64,000 bases of DNA, from contig CANQDG010000004.1 of NCBI GenBank assembly GCA_947591495.1, positions 5,358-69,357 of the forward strand, read 5' to 3'. This document shows positions 1,427 through 55,614 of the stretch, one piece after another (position 1 is the first letter of the stretch; every line of letters starts with the position of its first letter). A program made the position numbers and the translations under genes. The notes beneath the pieces are model-generated. The model was not told the origin of the DNA. It saw only the letters and a program-made list of their open reading frames with translations, and ran no database searches. The stretch is from an uncultured Bacilli bacterium. Its GTDB lineage: Bacteria > Bacillota_I > Bacilli_A > ML615J-28 > CAG-313.

Positions 1427-3318
1427 ATATATCTAAAACATTATTTAAAAATCTCACTAGGTGTCCAAGTTTTATGGGACTTTATGATTTATATCTTAAC
1501 CGCACCTTTAATGAGGTTAAAACAATTGATGGCAAAAAGATTAATCAAGAATTGTTAGATGACATTCTAAACTTAGATGATAATTTATTTAATGAAGAAC
1601 AAGAAAAATTGCAAGAATTACTTTATCAAATGTTTGATGATAGTGATGGTCATGACTTATTAGAACAAACTAATCCTCAAATGGAAGCCTTTAAAGATGT
1701 TTATAAAGAAGTTGAAATGCTTGCTGCAGAGCATGTTGAGGCTTTACTTGGAAAAAGTGTTCAGTTTTCAGATGATACCCATCAACAAAAGAAATTTTCT
1801 TATCGCTTAAATGGTAATGAATTTTATTGCTATTTAGATATCTATTATGAAGATGAAAAAAGCATTAAAGTTTTTGAAGTAAAAACAACAACTTCTTCTA
1901 AATTTGATGATCTTCATATTACGAAGAATAAGCAAACAAGGCCGCTTTTTATAAAAAAAGAAGACCACATCTTTCATCTAAATAAAACAATTGAGCCTAG
2001 TTTATTACAAAATAAATTAAATAAAATAGCAGATCGCTATGGTAAGGTTGGTAAATATATATATGATATTGCTATTCAAAGACATATTATTGAAAATAGT
2101 ATGGAAAATGCAGGCAAAAATGTAGACAAAAAGGTAGAATATTACTTAGTCGTACTTGATGCTAAATATCGCTTTAGTGGTAAATATGATGAAAACAATC
2201 AACCTCTTTATTTACCAGATCAAGATGGTAATGAACTATTCAATGTTTATGATGTAACAGAGTTAACGACACCTTATCAAGAACAAATTTTAAATGAACG
2301 CACTCTTCTTTTTGAGTGGCAGGAAAACTTGGCAATTAAAACGAATGTTTTAGGAAAACATTGTCAATATAAAGAAACTACTCAGTGTAAATTTTGCCCT
2401 GTATGTATGAAAAAGGTTTTAAAAGATGGTTCAATTTTGGAATATTTAGATAAACATCGGGCCTTTTTTGTGCAAAATGAAAAAGGACGTGATAAAAGGG
2501 TTGATGTTTATGATTTGATTAATCAAGGTCTTACCACGATTCCAGATGCCAAACCATATCTACGCAAGCCTAATAATCTTATGCAATGTGATACTTATGA
2601 AAATAATTATATATATATCAATAAGCCACAAATTGAGGCTTCTTTAGCAAATATTTCGTATCCAATTTATTATTTAGATTTTGAAAGTTACAATTCACCA
2701 CTTCCACGATTTTTCCAAGAGTCACCTTATATGCAATCTTTATTTCAATATTCTTTACATGTTGAGAAGGCTAAAAATCAGTGTGATTTAGTAAAAGATC
2801 ACAAAGAGTTCCTTGCGAAAGATCATTTAGACCATCGTGAAGAATTAATCAAACAATTAATTGAAGATATTGATTTAAGTCAAGGGGGAACGGTTATTGT
2901 TTATAATAAATCATTTGAACAAACGCGTTTAAAAGAACTTGCAAGAATATTTCCAAAATATCAAGAAGCTCTATATAATATTCATGATCATATTTATGAT
3001 TTATTAGATTCTTTAAAAGGTAAAGCCGATCAAGTAGAAGACAAAGATACACAACCAACCTTTAATTATTATCATCCATTACTTCATGGTTCCTTTTCTA
3101 TTAAGAAAGTTTTACCGCTTTTTAGTGATTTATCATATCAAAATTTAGAAGTTAAAAATGGTACTGAGGCGATTGTAACATATGGTATGTTACCTTATTT
3201 AACCGAACAAGAATATAAAGAAAAATATTTAGCATTAAGCGTTTATTGTAGGCAAGATACTTGGGCGATGGTTGAAATATTAAGAGGCCTTTACGAGTTA
3301 ATAAAAAACCCTAATTAG
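1423..3318 (+). CDS. DUF2779-type protein: Cas4/AddB-like Fe-S PD-(D/E)XK nuclease domain fused to a DEDD-type exonuclease-like domain
   Basis: Motifs: TRCPSF, DIYYEDEKSIKVFEVKTT, CQYKETTQCKFCPVC, then YYLDFES, VYNKSFEQTRL and CRQDTWAM. Confidence 0.8.
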   Translation: MNISKTLFKNLTRCPSFMGLYDLYLNRTFNEVKTIDGKKINQELLDDILNLDDNLFNEEQEKLQELLYQMFDDSDGHDLLEQTNPQMEAFKDVYKEVEMLAAEHVEALLGKSVQFSDDTHQQKKFSYRLNGNEFYCYLDIYYEDEKSIKVFEVKTTTSSKFDDLHITKNKQTRPLFIKKEDHIFHLNKTIEPSLLQNKLNKIADRYGKVGKYIYDIAIQRHIIENSMENAGKNVDKKVEYYLVVLDAKYRFSGKYDENNQPLYLPDQDGNELFNVYDVTELTTPYQEQILNERTLLFEWQENLAIKTNVLGKHCQYKETTQCKFCPVCMKKVLKDGSILEYLDKHRAFFVQNEKGRDKRVDVYDLINQGLTTIPDAKPYLRKPNNLMQCDTYENNYIYINKPQIEASLANISYPIYYLDFESYNSPLPRFFQESPYMQSLFQYSLHVEKAKNQCDLVKDHKEFLAKDHLDHREELIKQLIEDIDLSQGGTVIVYNKSFEQTRLKELARIFPKYQEALYNIHDHIYDLLDSLKGKADQVEDKDTQPTFNYYHPLLHGSFSIKKVLPLFSDLSYQNLEVKNGTEAIVTYGMLPYLTEQEYKEKYLALSVYCRQDTWAMVEILRGLYELIKNPN

Positions 3319-3332
3319 TTTTAGGGTTTTTT
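3303..3332. terminator. Bidirectional terminator between convergent genes
   Basis: Stem aaaaccctaa (3305-3314) / ttagggtttt (3321-3330), flanked by A and T runs. Confidence 0.6.
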
Positions 3333-3338
3333 ATGCTA

Positions 3339-4640
3339 TTAGAAAAGAAAAATAGCTTCTAAATCATAGGCTAACGCCTTAATAATTTTCACTTTTTGAA
3401 TGCTTCCTATCGTAATTTTGTCATCATAAGAAGTATTAACATATATATAACCATCAACATCATCAGGTGCATAAGCAAAACTTCGAACGACGTAACATCC
3501 ATGATAGTCATCATAACGATCAACTAAAACACTATAAGTTTTTCCAACTTCTTTTTGATTAAGTTCATAAGATATTTGTAGTTGCAAACGCATTAAAATA
3601 TCTTTTCGCTTTTCCATAACATTTTGATCTACTTTAGGATACATTAAGAATCCCTTTGTATCTTCTTCATCAGAATAAGTAAAAATACCTAAATGATTAA
3701 ATTTAATAGTTTTAACAAAATCAACTAATTCTAAAAAGTCCTCATCATCTTCAGTAGGAAAGCCCACCATTAAAGTTGTTCTAATTGTCGCATCAGGAAT
3801 TTCATGCCTTATTTTATTAAATAAATCTACTAAAAAGGCTTTACTTCCTCTTCTTGCCATATTAGTTAAAATCTTATCACTGGCATGTTGAATTGGTATA
3901 TCAAAATACTTAGCAACGCGCTGATTATTTTTGATTTCCGCAATCAATCCATCAGTAATTTCATCGGGATATAAATAAAGCACCCGAATTACTTTAATGC
4001 CATCTAGCATACTGATACTTCTTAATAAGTCTTCTAAACGTTTACCTTCATTTAAATCAGTTCCATAACGGGTAGTATCTTGTCCTATTAAAGTAATCTC
4101 TTTGACGTTTTGTTTGATTAGCGTTTTAGCTTCTTCAATGATTTTTTCAAAAGGTCGACTTCTAAATGGTCCTCTAATTAAAGGAATAGCACAATAATTA
4201 CAACGATTATTACATCCTTCAGAAATTCGTAAGTAAGCAGTATGAGAAGGGGTTGCAATTAAGCGATTGTTGTAATCCATTTTATATGAATAATTGGTAT
4301 TTAATATTTTTTGAAACAATTCATCTATATGACTATAATCTTTAATGGGAAAATAGATATCAACCTCAGGGATACTTTGTTTTAAATCTTCTAAATATCG
4401 TTCAACTAAACATCCCATCGCAATAATAATTTTTTTACCCTTATTCTTTGTAACATCTAAAATGGTATCAATAGCTTCTTTTTTGGCACTTTCAATAAAT
4501 CCACAAGTATTGACTACAATAATATCAGCTTGGGATAAATTAGTCGTGATAGTTAGATTGTATTTTTGGGCTACTCCTAAAAATAATTCTGAATCAATTA
4601 GATTTTTAGCACAACCCAAAGAAATCATTCCTAATTTCAT
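3339..4640 (-). CDS. rimO: Ribosomal protein S12 methylthiotransferase (MiaB/RimO radical-SAM family)
   Basis: N-terminal ISLGCAKNLIDSE, radical-SAM CNNRCNYCAIP, C-terminal TRAM-like segment; 433 aa. Confidence 0.85.
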   Translation of the reverse strand: MKLGMISLGCAKNLIDSELFLGVAQKYNLTITTNLSQADIIVVNTCGFIESAKKEAIDTILDVTKNKGKKIIIAMGCLVERYLEDLKQSIPEVDIYFPIKDYSHIDELFQKILNTNYSYKMDYNNRLIATPSHTAYLRISEGCNNRCNYCAIPLIRGPFRSRPFEKIIEEAKTLIKQNVKEITLIGQDTTRYGTDLNEGKRLEDLLRSISMLDGIKVIRVLYLYPDEITDGLIAEIKNNQRVAKYFDIPIQHASDKILTNMARRGSKAFLVDLFNKIRHEIPDATIRTTLMVGFPTEDDEDFLELVDFVKTIKFNHLGIFTYSDEEDTKGFLMYPKVDQNVMEKRKDILMRLQLQISYELNQKEVGKTYSVLVDRYDDYHGCYVVRSFAYAPDDVDGYIYVNTSYDDKITIGSIQKVKIIKALAYDLEAIFLF

Positions 4641-14891: not shown

Positions 14892-17800
14892 TCAAGAACA
14901 ATTACAAGCAATTAATGAATCTGGTCATGACATCTTAGTAAATGCGGGAGCAGGAAGCGGTAAAACCGCTGTTTTAACAAATCGTTTAATTCGCCTAATT
15001 AATAATGGCGTTAAAATTGACGAATTAATCGTCTTAACTTTTACTAATCCTGCCGCAAACGAAATGAAAGAAAGACTAAGAAAAGAGCTAAAACAAACGA
15101 ATACACCAAACGCTAAAGAAGCCTTACAAAAAATTGATGTTGCAAATATTCAAACCTTTGATGGATTTATCAATGAATTTATCAAAAAGTATCATTATCT
15201 TTTAAATATGAAACAAGACTTTACAATCATTGATAGTGTCATTTCTAAAAAAGTTAAAACCGAATTTTTAGATCAAATTTTTGAAGATCTTTATTTAGCA
15301 AAAGATGCCAACTTTCTTGAACTAATCAATACTTATACTATCGATAATGATGATAACATTAAAAAATCTCTTTTAGAAATGTATGATAAATTAATTCTAA
15401 ACCCTAACTATCTAAAGATATTAGAGTACATTGATAATGAATTTAACCTTGATGTTATTAATAAACTTTTAGATGAATATTTAAAAATCATGAAGACATC
15501 GGTTAATAATATGACATCTTATTTAGATGAACTAGCGTTATATACAGCTAATCCTAAACTTTTAGATAAATATCAAGAAATAGTGCAATTAATTGATAAT
15601 TTAAATAAATGTAATTGTTATGATGATTTTTATGCTTGGAAAAGCCTTTCTTTTCCAGATAAAGTTAGAAGTCAAAAAAATGTTGATCCAGATGAAAAAG
15701 CAAGTTTTGATATAGTGCATGATAAAATTAAAAATGACTTTACAAAATTAAATAGTTTATTAATTTATCCAAATGATACATATATTAAAGAGGCTTATCT
15801 TAATACCAAAAATAGTACGAAAGCCATTTGTGATATTTTATTAAAACTAGATGCTTTATTAAAACAATATAAAGACTTGCATAATGTTTATGAATTTAAT
15901 GATCTTGCAACAAAAGCTATTCAAATATTAAAAGAAAACGATGATATAAGAGAAAAAATAAAAAATCACACTAAAGAAATTCTTATTGATGAATATCAAG
16001 ATACATCCGACATGCAAGAAGAATTGATAAAATTAATCGCTAATAATAATGTTTATATGGTTGGCGATATTAAACAATCCATTTATGGTTTTCGTAATGC
16101 TAATCCTAATCTTTTTAAAGCTAAATTTGAAGAGCTAAAAACAACCGGTGTAATTAATTTTACTAATAATTTTCGTTCTCGCCATAATGTATTAGATGTA
16201 GTAAATGTCATTTTTAGTAAACTAATGAGTGAAAATATTGGCGGAGTTATTTACAATGAGAACCATAAATTAAATTGTGGTTTTACTGACTATCAAAAAT
16301 TTGATGATAATTCATATGATCTAAAAATATATACCTATAGTACAAAAGAAATGAAAGCCTTAGAAGATATATATAAAGAGCAAGAAATCGAAGCATTTAT
16401 CATTTGTCAAAAGATTAAAAAAATGTTAAATACCAAAACGATTTATGATAAAGATAGTCAAACTTTTCGGCCATTAATGCTAAAAGATATTGCTATTATC
16501 ACCAGTACGAAAACTAATTTTGATACCTATAAAAAAATCTTTGAATATAATGGTTTACCACTCCAAATTATTAAAGATGAAGAAATTAGTAATAGTGAAG
16601 AAATATATGCCATCAATAGTTTATTAAAACTAATATACTTTTTTGATAAAACAAGTGAAAATTTCAATGATTTTAAATATGCTCTTATTAGTTTTTTAAG
16701 AAGTTTCATCTACCAAACAAGTGATAATGCAATATATGAAATTATTACAAGCCCTTCAATAAAAGAAGCCTTAAAAAACAAAATCCCATCTTTATATGAA
16801 AAATTAAAAGAACTAAATCAAAAATACCTTACGATTAGTTTAACTAATCTAATGATAACTATTTATCAAGAATTTGACGTTTATGGTAAAATCATCTTAC
16901 TTGACAATGTTGAAGCAAGCGAAGAAAAACTAATGTATCTTAGTGATTTAATTGATAAACTTAGTGCTTTAGATTACCAATTAATAGATGTAATTAATTT
17001 TTTAAATCTCTTAAAAGAAGATGATAGTTTCAAATATACAATTAAGGGAGAAACGACATTTAGTAATAATACTATTAGAATGTTAACTATCCATGCTTCA
17101 AAAGGATTAGAGTATCCGGTCTGTTTTTTTCCAGATATGTATAAACAATTCAATAAAAATGATTTTAAACAACTTATGATGTATACTAAAAATTATCACT
17201 TCATTTTACCTTTCATAGAAGAATTTAATAAAACGCCAAATATCAAATTTATTTTAGAAAAAAATGCATATGAGGAAGCTTTAGTTAGTGAAGAATTAAG
17301 AAAATTATATGTAGCTTTCACGCGCGCAAGAGAACAAATCATTTTAGTAATGCCAGAAGATGATAAAACTAGTGAATTAAGTGAAAATGCTAAAAAAGAA
17401 GCTAATTCATTTTTAAAATTACTATGTTTAATAAAAGATGATTTAACCCCATTTATAACAAAGATAAATTTAACTAGTTTAAATCTATCAAAAGAGTATG
17501 AGTTACTAATTAAACAAAAACAATATATACCTACGTTTACTAAAAAATTAACTTTTATCGATACTTCATCCAAAAAGGTAGCAGTTAATGAATATAAGGC
17601 ATCTAAAAAAGTTTTATTACCATCAATAAGTGAACAAAAATTAATGGATATAGGTACTAAATTTCATAAGGCTTTGGAAATATCACAAATGGATATTAAC
17701 ATCATTGATAGTCTTCATTTTAGTAGTGATATAAAGATGCATCTAAAAGCTTTTCTTAATAATGAATTTATTAAAAGTTTACAAATCATTAACCACTATC

Positions 17801-18033
17801 ATGAATATGCTTTTAGTTATGAAAAAGATCATAATGAAATTAATGGAGTTATGGATTTAGTTTTAGAAACACCTGATGCCTTTTATATCATTGACTATAA
17901 ATTATCTAATATTGATGATGTAGCTTATCAAAAACAATTAAATATATATAGGGAATACTTAAAAACCATAACTACTAAACCTATATATACATATTTATAT
18001 TCCATATATAAAAATGAATTTAAAAAAGTCTAG
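14875..18033 (+). CDS. addA: Helicase-nuclease AddA (UvrD/PcrA family with C-terminal nuclease)
   Basis: NAGAGSGKT, LIDEYQDTS, VGDIKQSIYGFR, LTIHASKGLEYP, YVAFTRAR, and C-terminal MDLVLE...IIDYK. Confidence 0.9.
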   Translation: MIMKFSQEQLQAINESGHDILVNAGAGSGKTAVLTNRLIRLINNGVKIDELIVLTFTNPAANEMKERLRKELKQTNTPNAKEALQKIDVANIQTFDGFINEFIKKYHYLLNMKQDFTIIDSVISKKVKTEFLDQIFEDLYLAKDANFLELINTYTIDNDDNIKKSLLEMYDKLILNPNYLKILEYIDNEFNLDVINKLLDEYLKIMKTSVNNMTSYLDELALYTANPKLLDKYQEIVQLIDNLNKCNCYDDFYAWKSLSFPDKVRSQKNVDPDEKASFDIVHDKIKNDFTKLNSLLIYPNDTYIKEAYLNTKNSTKAICDILLKLDALLKQYKDLHNVYEFNDLATKAIQILKENDDIREKIKNHTKEILIDEYQDTSDMQEELIKLIANNNVYMVGDIKQSIYGFRNANPNLFKAKFEELKTTGVINFTNNFRSRHNVLDVVNVIFSKLMSENIGGVIYNENHKLNCGFTDYQKFDDNSYDLKIYTYSTKEMKALEDIYKEQEIEAFIICQKIKKMLNTKTIYDKDSQTFRPLMLKDIAIITSTKTNFDTYKKIFEYNGLPLQIIKDEEISNSEEIYAINSLLKLIYFFDKTSENFNDFKYALISFLRSFIYQTSDNAIYEIITSPSIKEALKNKIPSLYEKLKELNQKYLTISLTNLMITIYQEFDVYGKIILLDNVEASEEKLMYLSDLIDKLSALDYQLIDVINFLNLLKEDDSFKYTIKGETTFSNNTIRMLTIHASKGLEYPVCFFPDMYKQFNKNDFKQLMMYTKNYHFILPFIEEFNKTPNIKFILEKNAYEEALVSEELRKLYVAFTRAREQIILVMPEDDKTSELSENAKKEANSFLKLLCLIKDDLTPFITKINLTSLNLSKEYELLIKQKQYIPTFTKKLTFIDTSSKKVAVNEYKASKKVLLPSISEQKLMDIGTKFHKALEISQMDINIIDSLHFSSDIKMHLKAFLNNEFIKSLQIINHYHEYAFSYEKDHNEINGVMDLVLETPDAFYIIDYKLSNIDDVAYQKQLNIYREYLKTITTKPIYTYLYSIYKNEFKKV

Positions 18034-18048
18034 ATTTTCTAGACTTTT
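18024..18048. terminator. Bidirectional terminator between addA and the rhodanese gene
   Basis: Stem aaaagtctaga (18024-18034) / tctagactttt (18038-18048). Confidence 0.6.
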
Positions 18049-18049
18049 A

Positions 18050-18361
18050 TTATGCATATTTAGTTATAACCGATCCCATCCAATGATCAATACCCCCAAT
18101 CACATTAATCACATTATACCCAAGCCTTGATAAAAAGCGTGTTGCTTGATAACTATTATTACCATTTTTACACATAATAAAATAGGTATATTTCTTATTC
18201 AAAAAAAGATGATACTTTTCACGTAAAATATAATAGGGAATATTGATAGCATCTATAATATGATATTGTTCAAAATCCCGTGAATCTCTAATATCAATAA
18301 TTTTAAAATTTAGATTTTTTTGATAATATTTAAAAAATTTAATTGGTGAAATTTCATTCAT
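18050..18361 (-). CDS. Rhodanese-domain protein
   Basis: IIDIRDSRDFEQYHIIDAINIP and active-site loop CKNGNNS; 103 aa. Confidence 0.8.
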   Translation of the reverse strand: MNEISPIKFFKYYQKNLNFKIIDIRDSRDFEQYHIIDAINIPYYILREKYHLFLNKKYTYFIMCKNGNNSYQATRFLSRLGYNVINVIGGIDHWMGSVITKYA

Positions 18362-18433
18362 AAAAGCCTCCTTGATTATGTTTTAATAATTCTAACAAAG
18401 TTAGTTAAAAAATAAGGTCGCTTTATGGTAGGA

Positions 18434-18468
18434 AATAAAAAAAGTGATAAGTGAACACTTATCACTTT
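18434..18468 (-). terminator. Terminator of the toxN transcript
   Basis: 13-bp stem aaagtgataagtg (18441-18453) / cacttatcacttt (18456-18468), followed on the minus strand by a T-run. Confidence 0.65.
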
Positions 18469-19028
18469 TAGGCTGCAATATGAGAATACTCTTCGCATTT
18501 TTCTTCAGCTTCTTTAAAAGGCATAATACTCTTTAGAAACTTCATATTGTTTCCGTTAATAATAGTGCTTTCGTTGATCTTGATGGTATATAAATATTTT
18601 GCTTTTTTATAAATTAAATCAGTATTTTTTTTAATCCACTTTAATTCATCAAAAATTAAAGACTTATATTTTACATCAGATTCTTCAGCAGTATTATAAT
18701 AGTTGATTTCTGATAAAGGTACAGGGATCATATTGTTTAATTTAATAGTACCTATTAACACTAATTTATTTTTAGATGTTTTAGTAATACGTAAAATTGA
18801 ATAAGTGGATTTTTTAATAGAACCATTAGAATTATAATCCGATGGTTTTGGTGAAGATAGTGGTGCGAAATAGTTGAAATTATTGACTTTTAAAATGACA
18901 CCAATGTATTTACGAGGATGTACTCTGGTTTTTTCTTTGTTAGATAACATCGTGTTCTTAAAAAAGTTCATCATATAATTAATGTATTGATCAGAAACTT
19001 CTATTATTATAATTTTTTGTAAATTCAT
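18468..19028 (-). CDS. toxN: Type III toxin-antitoxin endoribonuclease toxin, ToxN/AbiQ family
   Basis: Matches ToxN blocks as I remember them. KYIGVILKVNNFNYFAPLSSPK resembles AFIGIVLEIQGHKYLAPLTSPK. IGTIKLNNMIPV resembles LGLINLKFMIPI. YKSLIFDELKWIKKNTDLIYKKA resembles YKRMLYKQLQFIRANSDKI. RBS aaaaggggt upstream; repeat RNA cassettes upstream. Confidence 0.9.
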   Translation of the reverse strand: MNLQKIIIIEVSDQYINYMMNFFKNTMLSNKEKTRVHPRKYIGVILKVNNFNYFAPLSSPKPSDYNSNGSIKKSTYSILRITKTSKNKLVLIGTIKLNNMIPVPLSEINYYNTAEESDVKYKSLIFDELKWIKKNTDLIYKKAKYLYTIKINESTIINGNNMKFLKSIMPFKEAEEKCEEYSHIAA

Positions 19029-19051
19029 ACGATACCCCTTTTTTAAATTAT

Positions 19052-19202
19052 AATAATAAAATGGTAAGATATCAATATCTCACCATTATTGTTTAAAATC
19101 AGCATAGCTTATTTATATCTACTATTCAATGGTCGGTGTGGAATCACCTGTTCATTAAAGCTTCCGCGCTTATTGCGAAAGCAAATAATAAATCAACTAT
19201 GC
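19052..19202 (-). ncRNA. Antitoxin-like RNA cassette A (toxin-proximal, repeat block decayed)
   Basis: On the minus strand: promoter 19209-19237, closing-helix arms (19101-19122 and 19181-19205), about one repeat-equivalent (ggtgtggaatcacc-tgttcattaaa-gcttccgcgcttat), a hairpin at 19061-19086 and a T-run, then the toxN RBS. Confidence 0.55.
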
Positions 19203-19208
19203 ACTAGC

Positions 19209-19237
19209 ATTATATCAAAAAAGAAATTAAGTGTCAA
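19209..19237 (-). promoter_or_regulatory. Sigma-70-type promoter of cassette A
   Basis: Minus strand TTGACA (19237-19232), 17-nt spacer, TATAAT (19214-19209). Confidence 0.7.
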
Positions 19238-19302
19238 TATCTTTTTAAAAAAATCTATAATTTTTTTGGGTAATATATATCATTGTAATAAAAAATTTTT
19301 AT

Positions 19303-19498
19303 AATAAAAATGGTAAGATTAATATCTTACCATTACTATTTAATATAAGGCATAGTTACTTATTCTTACAACTCCCGCACTTATGGTGGAGGATCACCGT
19401 TCATTACAACTCCCGCACTTATGGTGGAGGATCACCTGTTTACTTACAACTCCCGCACTTATGGTGGAGGATCACCGGATGAATAAGAATAACTACGC
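19303..19498 (-). ncRNA. Antitoxin-like RNA cassette B (three repeats inside a closing helix)
   Basis: Own promoter 19505-19533. Helix arms ggcatagttacttattcttaca (19349-19370) / ggatgaataagaataactacgc (19477-19498). Three cores. Terminator hairpin atggtaagat-taat-atcttaccat (19310-19333) followed by TTTTTATT on the minus strand. Confidence 0.7.
19371..19476 (-). repeat. 3 x tandem repeat, identical 28-nt core actcccgcacttatggtggaggatcacc
   Basis: Cores start at 19371, 19409 and 19449 (periods 38 and 40 nt). Linkers are gttcattaca and tgtttacttaca. Confidence 0.9.
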
Positions 19499-19504
19499 AT
19501 TAAC

Positions 19505-19533
19505 ATTATATCAAAAAAGAAATTAAGTGTCAA
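19505..19533 (-). promoter_or_regulatory. Sigma-70-type promoter of cassette B
   Basis: Minus strand TTGACA (19533-19528), 17-nt spacer, TATAAT (19510-19505). Confidence 0.7.
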
Positions 19534-19596
19534 TATCTTTTTAAAAAAATCTATAATTTTCTTGGGAAATATATATCCTTGTAATCAAAATTTTTA

Positions 19597-19789
19597 TAAT
19601 AAAAATGGTAAGATATTAATCTTACCATAATAGTTTAAATGTAGCATAGCATCTTATTCTTACAGCTTCCGCGCTAAGGTGGGGAATCACCGTTCTATAG
19701 AGCTCCCGCGCTTATGGTGGGGGATCACCTGTTCATTACAGCTTCCGCGCTAAGGTGGGGAATCACCGGGTGAATAAGAATAACTATGT
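19597..19789 (-). ncRNA. Antitoxin-like RNA cassette C (three repeats, variant cores)
   Basis: Own promoter 19796-19824. Helix arms at 19644-19664 / 19768-19792. Terminator hairpin atggtaagat-atta-atcttaccat (19605-19628) followed by a T-run on the minus strand. Confidence 0.7.
19665..19767 (-). repeat. 3 x tandem repeat, cores gcttccgcgctaaggtggggaatcacc / gctcccgcgcttatggtgggggatcacc / gcttccgcgctaaggtggggaatcacc
   Basis: Cores start at 19665, 19702 and 19741. The first and third are identical; the middle one is closer to the cassette B core. Confidence 0.9.
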
Positions 19790-19795
19790 ACTAAC

Positions 19796-19824
19796 ATTAT
19801 ACCAAAAAAGAAAATCAGTGTCAA
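19796..19824 (-). promoter_or_regulatory. Sigma-70-type promoter of cassette C
   Basis: Minus strand TTGACA (19824-19819), 17-nt spacer, TATAAT (19801-19796). Confidence 0.7.
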
Positions 19825-19865
19825 TGCTTTTTTAAAACTTATTAATATTTTTTATATGTTAGGAC

Positions 19866-21185
19866 TTAATATTCTGTTAAAAGAAATCCAAGGTAAAGTG
19901 GAATCGTAAGTATTTTATCTACTTTTCCAATATTATAATGTCCAAGTTTAATTACGCCTGCAACATGATATTTTTCAGGATGTGCAAGAATAGTTTTTGC
20001 ACTTTTAGTATTGCCAGTTGTGGATTTAATTTCTATAAGATAGCATCCACCCTTGTATCTTGTGACAAAATCAATTTCAAGTCCTGAATCTTTGTGATAA
20101 TAATATAACTTTCTACCCATCTTCACAAAGATATCCGCAATTAGATTTTCAAAGATTGCGCCTTTATAAGCATAAAGATTGCCTTGTAAAATATCGTACT
20201 GCGTTCCATTTTCTAGCATACTTACAAATAGCCCTGTATCATTCATATAAACTTTAAAAACATCTTGTATGGCATTGCCATCGAGAGGAAGTTCAGGAAG
20301 TTCAAGATTATAACAACGCGAAACGATTCCTGCATCTTCAATCCATTGTAAGCTCCCCGCAAATTTTCTTGCGGGAGTACCTTTTTTTACCACCGAATAT
20401 TGAAACTTTTTATTTTCTTTACTAAGTTGCATAGGGATTGATTGAAAACATTCTCTAATAAGGGGTTTATCCATCTTTCTAGCATATTTTACCATATCAT
20501 CTTCATAAGAGTTGATAATATTACGTTGCATAGTTAGGACTATATTCATTTGTTTAGTGTCAATAAATTTTTGAACAACAGCTGGCATCCCTCCAACAAC
20601 TGTATATTGAAGCATAAGTTCATACATCTTGTTGTGCAAAGCATCAGGAACAGGTGTTACTGTTTGTAAACACATCTTTAATTTTTCAATAATCTTTTCG
20701 CTTATGCCATTAGCCCAAAGGAACTCTTCAAAATCAAGTGGTCGCATTTCAATAAGCGCCTCAGAGCCTACTGGAACAGATTTTGGTTGTTTACCATAAC
20801 CCCTAACGCCAAGAAGTGAGCCTGTGCTAATGACATCAAATCTACCATCTTCCTTAAAAAATTTCAATGATGTTCGTGCCTCAGGACAATCTTGTATCTC
20901 ATCAAAAATAATAATTGTTTCGTATGGTACAAAAATTGCCTCATCACCAAGAAGTGCCGACATCATAATGATGAGATCATCCACTTTTAATGAATCATTA
21001 AAAATAGTAATATAGTTGGGATTAGTTAAAAAATTCAAATAAACAACATGCTTATAATTTTCTTTCGCAAACTTGAGAACCGAAAAGGTTTTGCCACATT
21101 GCCTTTGCCCTTTAATGATAAGGGGACTTTTATTAGGAGTATTCTTCCAATCTTTCAGTACATTTTCAATCTTTCTTTTTAACAT
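19866..21185 (-). CDS. AAA+ ATPase with C-terminal DUF4143-type domain (COG1373-like), paralog 1
   Basis: Walker A GQRQCGKT and Walker B IIIFDEIQ. Clear paralog of 54295..55614: same 439-aa length and shared blocks (ARTSLKF, DGRFDVISTGSLLG, VVGGMP, KKFQYS, YYHKDSGLEIDF). Confidence 0.85.
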   Translation of the reverse strand: MLKRKIENVLKDWKNTPNKSPLIIKGQRQCGKTFSVLKFAKENYKHVVYLNFLTNPNYITIFNDSLKVDDLIIMMSALLGDEAIFVPYETIIIFDEIQDCPEARTSLKFFKEDGRFDVISTGSLLGVRGYGKQPKSVPVGSEALIEMRPLDFEEFLWANGISEKIIEKLKMCLQTVTPVPDALHNKMYELMLQYTVVGGMPAVVQKFIDTKQMNIVLTMQRNIINSYEDDMVKYARKMDKPLIRECFQSIPMQLSKENKKFQYSVVKKGTPARKFAGSLQWIEDAGIVSRCYNLELPELPLDGNAIQDVFKVYMNDTGLFVSMLENGTQYDILQGNLYAYKGAIFENLIADIFVKMGRKLYYYHKDSGLEIDFVTRYKGGCYLIEIKSTTGNTKSAKTILAHPEKYHVAGVIKLGHYNIGKVDKILTIPLYLGFLLTEY

Positions 21186-21212
21186 AATTGATCACCTCGC
21201 ACTTTTGATAAT

Positions 21213-21241
21213 ATTATATCACAAATTTAAAACTTTTTCAA
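21213..21241 (-). promoter_or_regulatory. Promoter of ATPase paralog 1
   Basis: Minus strand TTGAAA (21241-21236), 17-nt spacer, TATAAT (21218-21213). The -35 lies inside the first 33-bp repeat unit. Confidence 0.6.
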
Positions 21242-21329
21242 GGGAGTTTTAGTTAAAAATTACAACTTTTTCAAGGGACTTTTTGCTAGGTGTTGCAACT
21301 TTTTCAAGGGAGTTTTATATTTTTAGTAA
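21231..21329. repeat. 3 x 33-bp tandem repeat with conserved core aactttttcaaggga(g/c)t
   Basis: Units start at 21231, 21264 and 21297, exactly 33 bp apart. Confidence 0.85.
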
Positions 21330-21337
21330 TTTTTTTA

Positions 21338-21484
21338 TTAAATATAAGGCATAGCTTATATACATTTATTATCAATATTTGGTAAAAAATCACTTGTTCA
21401 TTACAATTTTTATGCGTATTTTAAAAGCCAATAATAAGTCAACTATGCACTAAATATTAAAATTGGTTTAATATTAAATGTCAA
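21338..21484 (-). other. Decayed fourth copy of the antitoxin-like cassette (D)
   Basis: ttaaatataaggcatagcttata (21338-21360), aatcacttgttcattaca (21388-21405), ccaataataagtcaactatgcacta (21428-21452) and tgtcaa (21479-21484) are collinear with the helix arm, linker, helix arm and -35 of cassettes A to C. Cores and the terminator hairpin are lost. Confidence 0.6.
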
Positions 21485-21646
21485 TATAAAACACAAATAA
21501 CACTAATAATCTTATATTAATTGATTGAAAAAATATCTCTAATATTATATAATAAGTTTAAATGGTAGTGATAATTGATAGAAAAAATAAAAATTAGAAA
21601 TTATCATTAATATTTATAATAAAATATTAGCTAGTTGGAGATTAAT

Positions 21647-52219: not shown

Positions 52220-52585
52220 GGGTCTGTATATTGGTTTCGATTGAATTTCGGAAGTTATGTAAGCATGTCGTGGTTGTGCACGTTAAAACACCGAGATAAA
52301 ATAAACGGAAATACAAATTACGCTTTCTGCTAAGCTTAAAATAGCAGGCTAGTTTTATACTAGTTTTATCTCTTATATTGCTTGCCTACGTGTGGTATAA
52401 GGGTAAGTAGAGTAGGCTTGGAAGAAATACTGCTGTTTCTAGGTATAATTCGAAATTTTAGAACTGGCAATTATTATCTTTGCTAATTGTGATAGTAGTT
52501 GTAAGATATATACAAAAAGCTAAACATGTAGAAGACATAGCGAATGATGTTTAAGACCCGAGTTCGAATCTCGGCAGATCCACCA
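52220..52585 (+). ncRNA. ssrA: tmRNA (SsrA)
   Basis: Acceptor stem GGGTCTG / CAGATCC with the G3-U pair. T-arm CCGAG-TTCGAAT-CTCGG. Encoded CCA at 52583-52585. Tag-like frame GGA AAT ACA AAT TAC GCT TTC TGC TAA at 52307-52333. Confidence 0.92.
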
Positions 52586-54294: not shown

Positions 54295-55614
54295 TTAAAT
54301 AAACATAGCAAGAAAATGAGGAATACTAAATTTCTTATCTTTCATCCCTATGTTGCCACTAATTAACTTCATAGCAATAGATGGTGAAAATTCTTTTATA
54401 AAAAAGTCAAGAGATTTGGTTGCTGAATTACCTGCCTTAACTTCAATTGGAATAACTTCGGCATTTTTTTCAATAATAAATTCAAGTTCAGAATTATCAT
54501 TTGGTTTATAATAATGAAGGGTATAACCATTTTTGACAAGCGTTTCAGCGATGAAGTTTTCATATATACCACCTTTAGCAAATCCCTTTAATGTTCCATT
54601 AAGTAACGCTTGCTTTGTGGCAAAGCCAAATAATGCAAGTAAAAGTCCTGTATCTGCTATATAAAGTTTGAATTCATTGCTTTTTTCATAAGCATTAAGT
54701 GGCAAAATAGGTGTCGTAGTATTATAGCAGATATAAGCCATATTGGCATCGTGTAACCACTGCACACTATCCATAAATTTACGAGCCGTAGCTTTTTTTT
54801 CAATTTCAGAATATTTGAATTTTTTATTTTCTTTAGCTAGTTGACGTGGAATACTTTCATAACACTTACGAACCTTTAATTTTTCGGCACCTTTAGCGTG
54901 TTGAGAAATATCGTCTATGTAAGATATTAAGATTTTATCTTGAATTTCTTGCACTTTAGTGAAATCTTTGAATTCCATAAAATTGGCAACTACTTCCGGC
55001 ATTCCACCTACTACAAGATATTCACGAAGTAGCATTTCAAATTTTTCATTGATTTCAGGTGGTATCTTTTCTTTTGATGTATAAAAACTTTTAAGATAAG
55101 CAATCGTTTCATCACTATAGCCATATGCCCATAAAAATTCTTCAAAATCCATAGAATACATCATAGCAGTCTTTTCGTAACCAACTGGAATTGATTCAAC
55201 CGGTTTAACTTCCTTATCATCGTCATCACCATAAGATAAACCAAGAAGTGAACCCGAAGCAATCACATCATAACGGCCATCTTCGGCGAGAAACTTTAAT
55301 GATGTGCGAGCATCAGCACATTTTTGAATTTCATCAAGGAATATAAGAGTTTTGCCAGGGATTAGTTTTACCCCAGGAATATTGGCAGTCAATCTTTTAT
55401 ATATTTCTTCAGCAGTCTTGTTACCACTAAAGATAATCTTTAGACTTTTTTGTTCATGGAAGTTAATTTCCACAAAACTTTCATATTCCCTTTTACCAAA
55501 TTCTCGGATTAAATATGTCTTACCTACTTGTCTTGCACCCTTTACTAAAAGACATTCTTTTTTATCTTTATTTTTCCATGCAAGCAAAGTATCATACATT
55601 TTTCTTTTTAACAT
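54295..55614 (-). CDS. AAA+ ATPase with DUF4143-type C-terminus, paralog 3
   Basis: Walker A GARQVGKT and Walker B IFLDEIQ. 439 aa; close paralog of 19866..21185. Confidence 0.85.
   Translation of the reverse strand: MLKRKMYDTLLAWKNKDKKECLLVKGARQVGKTYLIREFGKREYESFVEINFHEQKSLKIIFSGNKTAEEIYKRLTANIPGVKLIPGKTLIFLDEIQKCADARTSLKFLAEDGRYDVIASGSLLGLSYGDDDDKEVKPVESIPVGYEKTAMMYSMDFEEFLWAYGYSDETIAYLKSFYTSKEKIPPEINEKFEMLLREYLVVGGMPEVVANFMEFKDFTKVQEIQDKILISYIDDISQHAKGAEKLKVRKCYESIPRQLAKENKKFKYSEIEKKATARKFMDSVQWLHDANMAYICYNTTTPILPLNAYEKSNEFKLYIADTGLLLALFGFATKQALLNGTLKGFAKGGIYENFIAETLVKNGYTLHYYKPNDNSELEFIIEKNAEVIPIEVKAGNSATKSLDFFIKEFSPSIAMKLISGNIGMKDKKFSIPHFLAMFI

Follow-up and report, generated by a model that had tools for sequence, protein, structure and literature searches.

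A ToxIN locus of unusual layout, belonging to the type III toxin-antitoxin systems of the abortive-infection (phage-defence) kind, was found on the minus strand of a 64,000-nucleotide stretch (hereafter the window) of contig CANQDG010000004.1 (assembly GCA_947591495.1), from an uncultured Bacilli bacterium of the CAG-313 lineage. Its toxin gene, toxN, is preceded by three head-to-tail cassettes, C, B and A in minus-strand order from 19865 to 18440, each made of a predicted promoter, a folded RNA and a predicted terminator. By its toxin, its repeat structure and its terminator, the locus is a clear ToxIN member. Cassettes B and C hold arrays of ToxI-like antitoxin units. Cassette A, which adjoins toxN, is by its sequence a decayed ToxI cassette, and probably now serves as promoter and leader of toxN. 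A more accurate description of the locus is a pair of intact, stand-alone ToxI genes followed by a degenerate leader cassette. As far as sampled, the arrangement is unusual and restricted to one lineage; it is a lineage-specific tandem duplication, variable between strains, and not a distinct family architecture.

Toxin gene, promoters and antitoxin repeats

A first-pass annotation of the window, made from the letters and their translations, had assigned the 186-aa minus-strand open reading frame to ToxN/AbiQ. This assignment is confirmed. Its sole significant Pfam match is PF13958, ToxN_toxin (E = 3e-30; 105.9 bits, cut-off 25), and the best match in a PDB sequence search is 4ATO, the ToxN of B. 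thuringiensis (1.9e-16), with 7D8O (E. coli ToxN), 2XD0 (Pectobacterium ToxN) and 4GLK (AbiQ, 9e-09) as further matches. At E <= 0.01, ToxN/AbiQ chains alone were retrieved from the PDB, and no CptN or other chain. Residues 56-61, PLSSPK, align with PLTSPK of 2XD0 and 7D8O, and S58, S59 and K61 are invariant in the aligned sequences of 30 homologues; we take this motif (T/S-S-x-K) to be the ToxN catalytic motif.

Upstream of toxN, a promoter scan detected three minus-strand sites with 12/12 matches to TTGACA-17-TATAAT, all with an extended -10 TG (TGnTATAAT), one for each unit as the first-pass annotation had claimed. Five perfect sites of this kind were found in the whole window, versus 0.09 expected. 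Read on the minus strand, the first positions of the three -35 hexamers are 19824, 19533 and 19237, with spacings of 291 bp (C to B) and 296 bp (B to A). The same spacings had been given earlier, and the coordinates reported then (19819, 19528 and 19232) are the low-coordinate ends of the hexamers. The hairpin followed by a T-run, also described for each unit, was recovered in all three cassettes with stems of 10-12 bp, folding at −11.8 to −13.3 kcal/mol (z-scores −4.4 to −5.4). Terminators placed directly before toxN, that is the one of cassette A and those of two sister loci presented below (L091 and L092), have a 4-U tract, versus 5 U in the stand-alone cassettes B and C. Function of all these promoters and terminators is predicted.

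Fold prediction also recovered the closing helix that had been read in each unit. This helix of 14-16 bp joins the 5′ end of each ToxI precursor to the sequence right before the terminator, and is predicted in the three cassette RNAs with z-scores of −3.7 to −5.8. No description of a closing helix in ToxI precursors was found in the type III literature examined. It is common to the clade of toxins P0001-P0003 (window, L091 and L092); in the relatives L112 and L119, a small 5′ hairpin (AUAGG-loop-CCUAU) stands in its place. Two plus-strand open reading frames lying over the cassettes (19089-19304, 71 aa; 19383-19526, 47 aa) were rejected as repeat artefacts.

Short tandem repeats had been claimed for every unit, which proved right for B and C and wrong for A. 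Tandem Repeats Finder (TRF) detected 38-nt repeats at 19365-19477 in cassette B (2.9 copies, 93% matches) and at 19657-19768 in cassette C (3.0 copies, 81% matches). The ToxI pseudoknot follows a template of order 1a, 3-4 nt, 2a, 1-2 nt, 1b, loop, 2b (Blower et al. 2012, PMC3401426). To score this fold, 27 repeat units from the window and 12 homologous loci were aligned, counting GGUG/CACC as stem 1 and UYCY/RGRA as stem 2. Pairing was found in 89% of the stem cells, against 44-59% in slid controls. Double-sided changes occurred at 6 of the 8 pairs, including all 4 pairs of stem 2 (UCCU/AGGA versus UUAU/AUAA, for example), and the observed covariation score was reached by 0 of 500 shuffles. 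The B units fit the template with UCCU/GGGA, and the C units with UUCC/GGAA or UCCC/GGGA. Identification of the B and C repeats as ToxI-like pseudoknot units is therefore supported, at the level of aligned sequences, by covariation. A covariance model of our own built for the unit gave them 36-46 bits.

The linkers between units are A-rich (UAAUGAAC, UAUAGAAC and UAAGUAAAC) and resemble the known ToxN cleavage sites AA^AU, GAA^AU and AAA^AA (PMC8860590). Cassettes B and C are about 85% identical. Their units differ at some 4-6 of 38 positions, pseudoknot stem-2 and loop positions among them, and the three B units carry the same B-specific substitutions, with pairing kept. The search with known-RNA covariance models, which the first-pass annotation had proposed as a check, did not place the cassettes: Rfam 15 at E <= 10 over 17500-21500 gave no ToxI-like or other credible family, and a match to STnc370 on terminator B (E = 4) was judged spurious. 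At gathering thresholds, the only Rfam hit in the whole window is a tmRNA gene (52220-52585, plus strand; RF00023, 131.6 bits).

In cassette A, TRF found no tandem repeat, and a single recognisable ToxI-like unit is left, which scores 24 bits with our unit model versus 36-46 for B and C. Its history was read from a five-way alignment of A, B, C and the single cassettes of L091 and L092. A has kept an intact promoter, closing helix and terminator. Compared to the other four cassettes, it has lost one repeat by deletion, and other sequence stands in place of the 5′ half of its first unit and of the 3′ half of its last unit, the latter with an identity of 6/22. What remains is a contiguous block of 39 nt (19135-19173), identical to C-type sequence at 37 of 39 positions and covering one inter-unit junction. 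On one side of this junction, the unit retains stem 1, with 13/14 positions identical, and perhaps 3 bp of stem 2; the second half-unit has neither stem 1 nor the 5′ strand of stem 2. According to the alignments, cassette A also lacks the AUAAGCG loop found in most units of the closest subfamily, and the 3′ A-rich linker.

A separate observation concerns 19160-19182 on the minus strand, where unit 1 forms an 8-bp hairpin between its overwritten 5′ half, GCUUUCGC, and the complementary GCGGAAGC, which the same unit has retained. The substitutions are clustered there, in a way that resembles quasi-palindrome (templated) mutation or else selection in favour of a new fold. Of the three cassettes, A has the strongest folding z-score (−5.8).

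Table 1. Positions of the toxIN features in the window, all on the minus strand
Feature	Position	Strand	Description and basis
Cassette C	19598..19824	−	promoter 19824-19796; repeats 19657-19768; terminator 19628-19605 with 5-T tract
Closing helix C	about 19788-19772 pairs with 19660-19645	−	predicted fold
C-to-B spacer	19534..19604	−	likely remnant of a toxN 5′ end (ribosome-binding site plus first ~8 codons); junction at AAAATTATA
Cassette B	19303..19533	−	promoter 19533-19505; repeats 19365-19477; terminator 19334-19309 with 5-T tract
Closing helix B	about 19498-19483 pairs with 19365-19350	−	predicted fold
B-to-A spacer	19238..19308	−	likely toxN remnant and AAAATTATA junction, as in the C-to-B spacer
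Cassette A, adjoining toxN	19055..19237	−	promoter 19237-19209; ToxI-like block 19135-19173; terminator 19087-19060
Closing helix A	19202-19188 pairs with 19120-19102	−	predicted fold
Fourth promoter-like site	19047..19075	−	TTGATA-17-TATAAT, 11/12; promoter scan; overlaps terminator A
toxN ribosome-binding site	19035..19040	−	AAGGGG, 6 nt 5′ of the ATG; direct sequence reading
toxN coding sequence, 186 aa	18468..19028	−	ToxN/AbiQ endoribonuclease toxin, Pfam PF13958
Terminator-like hairpin just past the toxN stop	18440..18469	−	13-bp stem then T-run; inverted repeat

Origin, strain variation and distribution of the arrangement

The nearest toxins, P0002 (73% identical) and P0003 (69%), are encoded at L091 and L092, in the same toxN-rhodanese synteny. 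Both loci have one canonical cassette immediately in front of toxN, comprising a closing helix and three C-type repeats. Cassette A is the copy at the ancestral position, because the colinear DNA alignment of the L091 and L092 loci with the window extends into it, and because its 3′ flank is common to L092.

As far as AAAATTATA, the spacer behind each of the terminators B and C can be aligned with the ribosome-binding site of toxN and its first ~8 codons; past this motif starts the sequence found upstream of the next promoter. Sequence comparison thus suggests a triplet produced by tandem duplication, in which the copied unit started ~25 nt upstream of the −35 hexamer and stopped near toxN codon 8; as the sequence is AT-rich, the spacer remnants are suggestive and not more. 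Depending on the segment, the three cassettes now differ mutually by 8-37%.

Between cassette C and the lone L091 cassette (window 19588-19781 versus L091:5-198), identity is 95.9%, above the 83.6% of the toxN-rhodanese flank, and it includes non-structural spacers. Either the RNA is under strong constraint or the lineages have exchanged it; the value is compatible with both. The extension of the identity across the spacers hints at between-lineage recombination at the antitoxin.

Strains were compared using metagenome contigs coding for the identical toxin (L081-L090). The same three cassettes are present in L081, 100% identical over 2300 nt, and in L083, identical apart from a 20-nt deletion in the C-to-B spacer (19556-19575). 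L082 has a clean 248-bp deletion, 19309-19062, by which cassette A is lost and the terminator of B is fused to toxN; cassette C is kept. From this allele it is clear that B can stand where the canonical cassette does, and that natural strains differ in cassette number. The remaining contigs, L084 to L090, begin within the cassettes, at 19558, 19237, 19199, 19237, 19377, 19236 and 19360 respectively. Contigs with this toxN thus start repeatedly inside the cassettes, and repeat-induced breaks of this kind may hide multi-cassette toxI loci in draft genomes.

We surveyed 80 ToxN-homologue loci on GTDB contigs, with one genome per species, using TRF, self-BLAST of the upstream region and a search with the unit covariance model. 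The closest ToxN in this set, from an uncultured Coprobacillus sp., is 56% identical to that of the window. No second cassette was detected by these three tests in the 66 loci with >=700 nt upstream, nor in five closer relatives (L094, L112, L115, L118 and L119, toxins 55-58% identical). Apart from L053 and L080, these 66 loci have a single unit cluster within about 200 nt of the ATG. The other 14 of the 80 loci, with less than 700 nt upstream, end too near toxN to inform, and so do L091 and L092; short-read assemblies break in such repeats, and multi-cassette loci may be under-sampled.

Two loci first looked like further multi-cassette cases and were rejected. L053 (Lachnospiraceae bacterium UBA7086) carries toxIN twice in tandem and does not have an antitoxin-only cassette: within L053:1-600, the upstream copy consists of the last repeat, the terminator and a truncated 5′ fragment of toxN interrupted by a run of Ns, and this remnant precedes a complete promoter-array-terminator-toxN. 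In L112, the 880-nt intergenic region holds a single cassette, the gene start having been miscalled inside the terminator. As for L080 (Bacillales bacterium UBA1719; toxN match at 3001-3477), it has no upstream repeat array, and downstream of toxN, in L080:3500-3600, one ToxI-like unit (25 bits) follows a promoter-like TTGATA-16-TATAAT.

Scanning with the DNA pattern of the ToxI core, GGTGATYCNCCACC N3-4 GYGCGGRAG, yielded six single-match contigs and no array in JGI metagenomes, and no match in IMG/VR. A protein-based scan of IMG/VR returned only distant ToxN relatives (<=38% identity), which is uninformative for this subfamily. All type III systems share a single-promoter bicistronic architecture according to a review, and orphan, duplicated or separately promoted upstream arrays came up neither in term searches of Blower 2012, this review and a 2025 tenpIN survey nor in a full-text search. 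The view of the first-pass annotation that the layout departs from type III loci with one promoter and one array is thus upheld by the review and by the 66 loci, none of which has a second cassette.

Elsewhere in the 64-kb window, neither a second toxN nor extra ToxI-like motifs were found. Local GC content is about 25%, and the window as a whole is ordinary chromosomal sequence of similar composition, in which addAB-like helicase-nuclease genes converge on the rhodanese-toxN block. A gene for a 439-aa AAA_14/DUF4143 ATPase (19866-21185, minus strand) lies directly upstream of the toxIN cassettes; a paralogue of the same length, 39% identical to it, is encoded at 54295-55614 on the same strand.

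Possible functions of the three cassettes

The account that we consider probable is that of a triplicated ToxIN locus in which B and C are independent ToxI genes and the promoter of cassette A, PA, together with a leaky terminator A, drives toxN, the antitoxin being amplified and largely uncoupled from the toxin. B and C would be transcribed independently, each ending at its own terminator, and ToxN would process the two RNAs into ~38-nt units by cleavage in the A-rich linkers. By analogy with the solved ToxIN structures, these units would assemble with ToxN into a closed RNA-protein complex and so inhibit it. The toxN mRNA would come mainly from PA read-through of terminator A, with its shorter 4-U tract, and from residual upstream read-through. 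The outcome would be two dedicated antitoxin genes and one toxin-driving leader, with a higher antitoxin dosage. If host transcription were shut off, by a phage for instance, the labile ToxI would still be lost and ToxN released. In the published model, the ToxI:ToxN ratio is fixed by the terminator, and A-rich sites are where ToxN processes ToxI; nothing at this locus contradicts the established ToxIN mechanism.

Since cassette A would no longer supply ToxI, B and/or C should be indispensable. The first-pass annotation had described B and C as stand-alone units, and each has indeed its own perfect promoter and its own terminator. These terminators are expected to leak, however, and the cassettes are co-oriented with toxN, so that uncoupling from toxin transcription is probably partial.

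Several points weigh against this account. Promoter and terminator function rests on consensus prediction in a genome of ~25% GC, and, B and C being ~85% identical, their 14 conserved promoter positions are weakly informative about selection. As L082 shows cassette A to be dispensable, the three-cassette state may be without adaptive value. Some residual antitoxin activity of A is conceivable, given that one unit keeps stem 1 and 3 of the 4 stem-2 pairs. Finally, the fourth promoter-like site could drive toxN instead of PA. Its −35 hexamer falls inside terminator A, in the loop and 3′ arm of the hairpin, with the −10 hexamer ~19 nt before the toxN ATG, so that it could serve toxN alone; it may also be due to chance, and its −35 hexamer, when read by eye, is poorly kept in L082 (about 2/6 matches).

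The triplication might alternatively be a neutral and transient polymorphism, unequal crossing-over adding and removing copies, with one array being enough and the extra copies, A included, having no regulatory meaning. The variation in cassette number and spacing among near-identical strains (248-bp deletion in L082, 20-nt deletion in L083) is what such a process predicts, as are duplication junctions at short AT-rich microhomology, the visible decay of cassette A and the absence of the arrangement from every other lineage examined. Yet B and C, though ~15% diverged, have both kept 12/12 promoters, intact stems and three pseudoknot-competent units, the B-specific substitutions are identical in the three B units with pairing preserved, and, A being degenerate, at least one upstream cassette must work for the cell to tolerate an intact toxN. 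We therefore regard a purely neutral polymorphism as rather unlikely.

Two related proposals concern the source of cassette C. In the first, which is speculative and in our view doubtful, there is a natural division of labour: A acts as toxin promoter and attenuator only, B and C are separate ToxI genes, and C, almost unchanged, came by recombination from another ToxN allele (73% identical toxin), to which it is cognate. If so, the antitoxin 'collection' would buffer the cell against incoming toxIN elements, or against phage factors targeting ToxI. In the second, which we hold to be improbable, B is cognate to this ToxN and C is the near-unchanged antitoxin of a diverged allele (L091 type, toxin 73% identical), taken up by recombination; the role of C would be cross-immunity or anti-addiction towards related toxIN alleles that enter the cell, or else redundancy against phage factors targeting ToxI. 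The second proposal draws on the near-identity of C with the L091 cassette, non-structural spacers included, above that of the flank (95.9% versus 83.6%), on L082, where the cassette fused to this toxin is B, and on the differences between B and C units at stem-2 and loop positions of the pseudoknot. These differences nevertheless amount to ~4-6 of 38 positions within the same architecture and linkers, so that both types of unit probably bind the same ToxN. The window moreover has no second toxN or further ToxI-like motifs, and constraint on the RNA could alone explain the conservation of C.

A single ToxI repeat is sufficient in the Pectobacterium system. Cassette A could by the same token be a still sufficient single-unit antitoxin, in which case the canonical cis coupling would be intact and B and C would add dose only. 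The kept stem 1 (13/14 identical), the possible 3-bp stem 2 and the 24 bits against the unit model go in this direction. Identity in the 3′ half of the unit is no better than random (6/22), though, the AUAAGCG loop and the 3′ A-rich linker are missing, and the other half-unit is without stem 1 and the 5′ strand of stem 2, which makes a cassette A sufficient by itself very improbable.

An assembly artefact due to mis-joined repeats, to which the frequent breaks of short-read contigs inside the cassettes (L084-L090) might point, was rejected as extremely unlikely: the cassettes are 8-37% different and hence not collapsed or expanded identical repeats, and independent samples agree on the C-B-A-toxN order (L081, L083) or give a clean C-B-toxN (L082).

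Relation to known type III systems

The locus was compared to the ToxIN systems of Pectobacterium atrosepticum (pECA1039), B. thuringiensis (pAW63) and E. coli. It shares with them a ToxN-family toxin with the conserved S-x-K motif, tandem repeats upstream on the same strand, whose 38 nt are inside the reported ToxI range of 31-46 nt, units that fit the 1a-2a-1b-2b pseudoknot template, A-rich linkers comparable to the AA^AU, GAA^AU and AAA^AA cleavage sites, and a predicted intrinsic terminator before the toxin gene, here also after arrays B and C. By sequence, it therefore has the toxin family, motif, upstream array, pseudoknot fit and terminator of ToxIN, but not the single promoter and adjacent array (about 1-50 bp); L082 has B adjacent to toxN but keeps C. 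The differences are the three promoter-RNA-terminator units in place of one single-promoter operon, a toxin-adjacent unit (A) without an intact repeat, a nearest intact array ending about 336 bp from the ATG instead of 1-50 bp, the 14-16-bp closing helix around each precursor, and the lack of an Rfam family for the cassettes at E <= 10, the spurious STnc370 aside.

AbiQ/antiQ of Lactococcus lactis (pSRQ900) has a toxin of the same family (4GLK, 9e-09) and likewise a low-GC Firmicute host. It differs by its single antitoxin array, and the toxin of the window is nearer to B. thuringiensis ToxN than to AbiQ. In antiQ, about 2.8 repeats of about 35 nt are followed by a terminator. CptIN and TenpIN likewise combine an endoribonuclease toxin with an antitoxin RNA made of repeats and with a terminator; the toxin of the window matches ToxN/AbiQ chains only and does not group with CptN or TenpN. 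The CptI and TenpI repeats are generally longer than those of ToxI and unalignable to the ToxI template (Blower 2012, PMC3401426).

A toxI placed downstream of toxN was noted in L. jensenii SJ-7A-US by Blower et al. 2012 (PMC3401426). Together with L080, it offers a loose precedent, as a toxI predicted to have its own promoter and not to be co-transcribed from upstream. In these loci, however, a single toxI lies downstream of toxN, whereas the window has two intact arrays upstream and a decayed third. Large gaps between toxI and toxN have also been reported, of 340 bp in Actinobacillus ureae and of 232 and 292 bp in Roseburia intestinalis (Blower et al. 2012, PMC3401426). A TRF-based scan would score the window as an array ~336 bp from toxN, a similar gap. 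In the window, this gap is a recognisable decayed cassette with promoter and terminator; the other loci were compared by their description.

Annotation by tandem-repeat finders limited to the first ~200 nt upstream would miss or misdescribe such loci, and so would short-read assemblies that break in the cassettes. The locus would break the cis coupling of toxin and antitoxin naturally: the intact arrays would be promoted and terminated on their own, the cassette that probably drives the toxin would no longer encode antitoxin, and in the sister strain L082 the canonical fusion is restored. The window allele and the L082 allele make a ready natural experiment on the part of cis coupling and dosage in ToxIN stability and in phage-triggered activation. 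With the B and C versions of ToxI, and sister toxins that are 69-73% identical, they also provide a small natural series for the co-evolution of ToxI-ToxN specificity.

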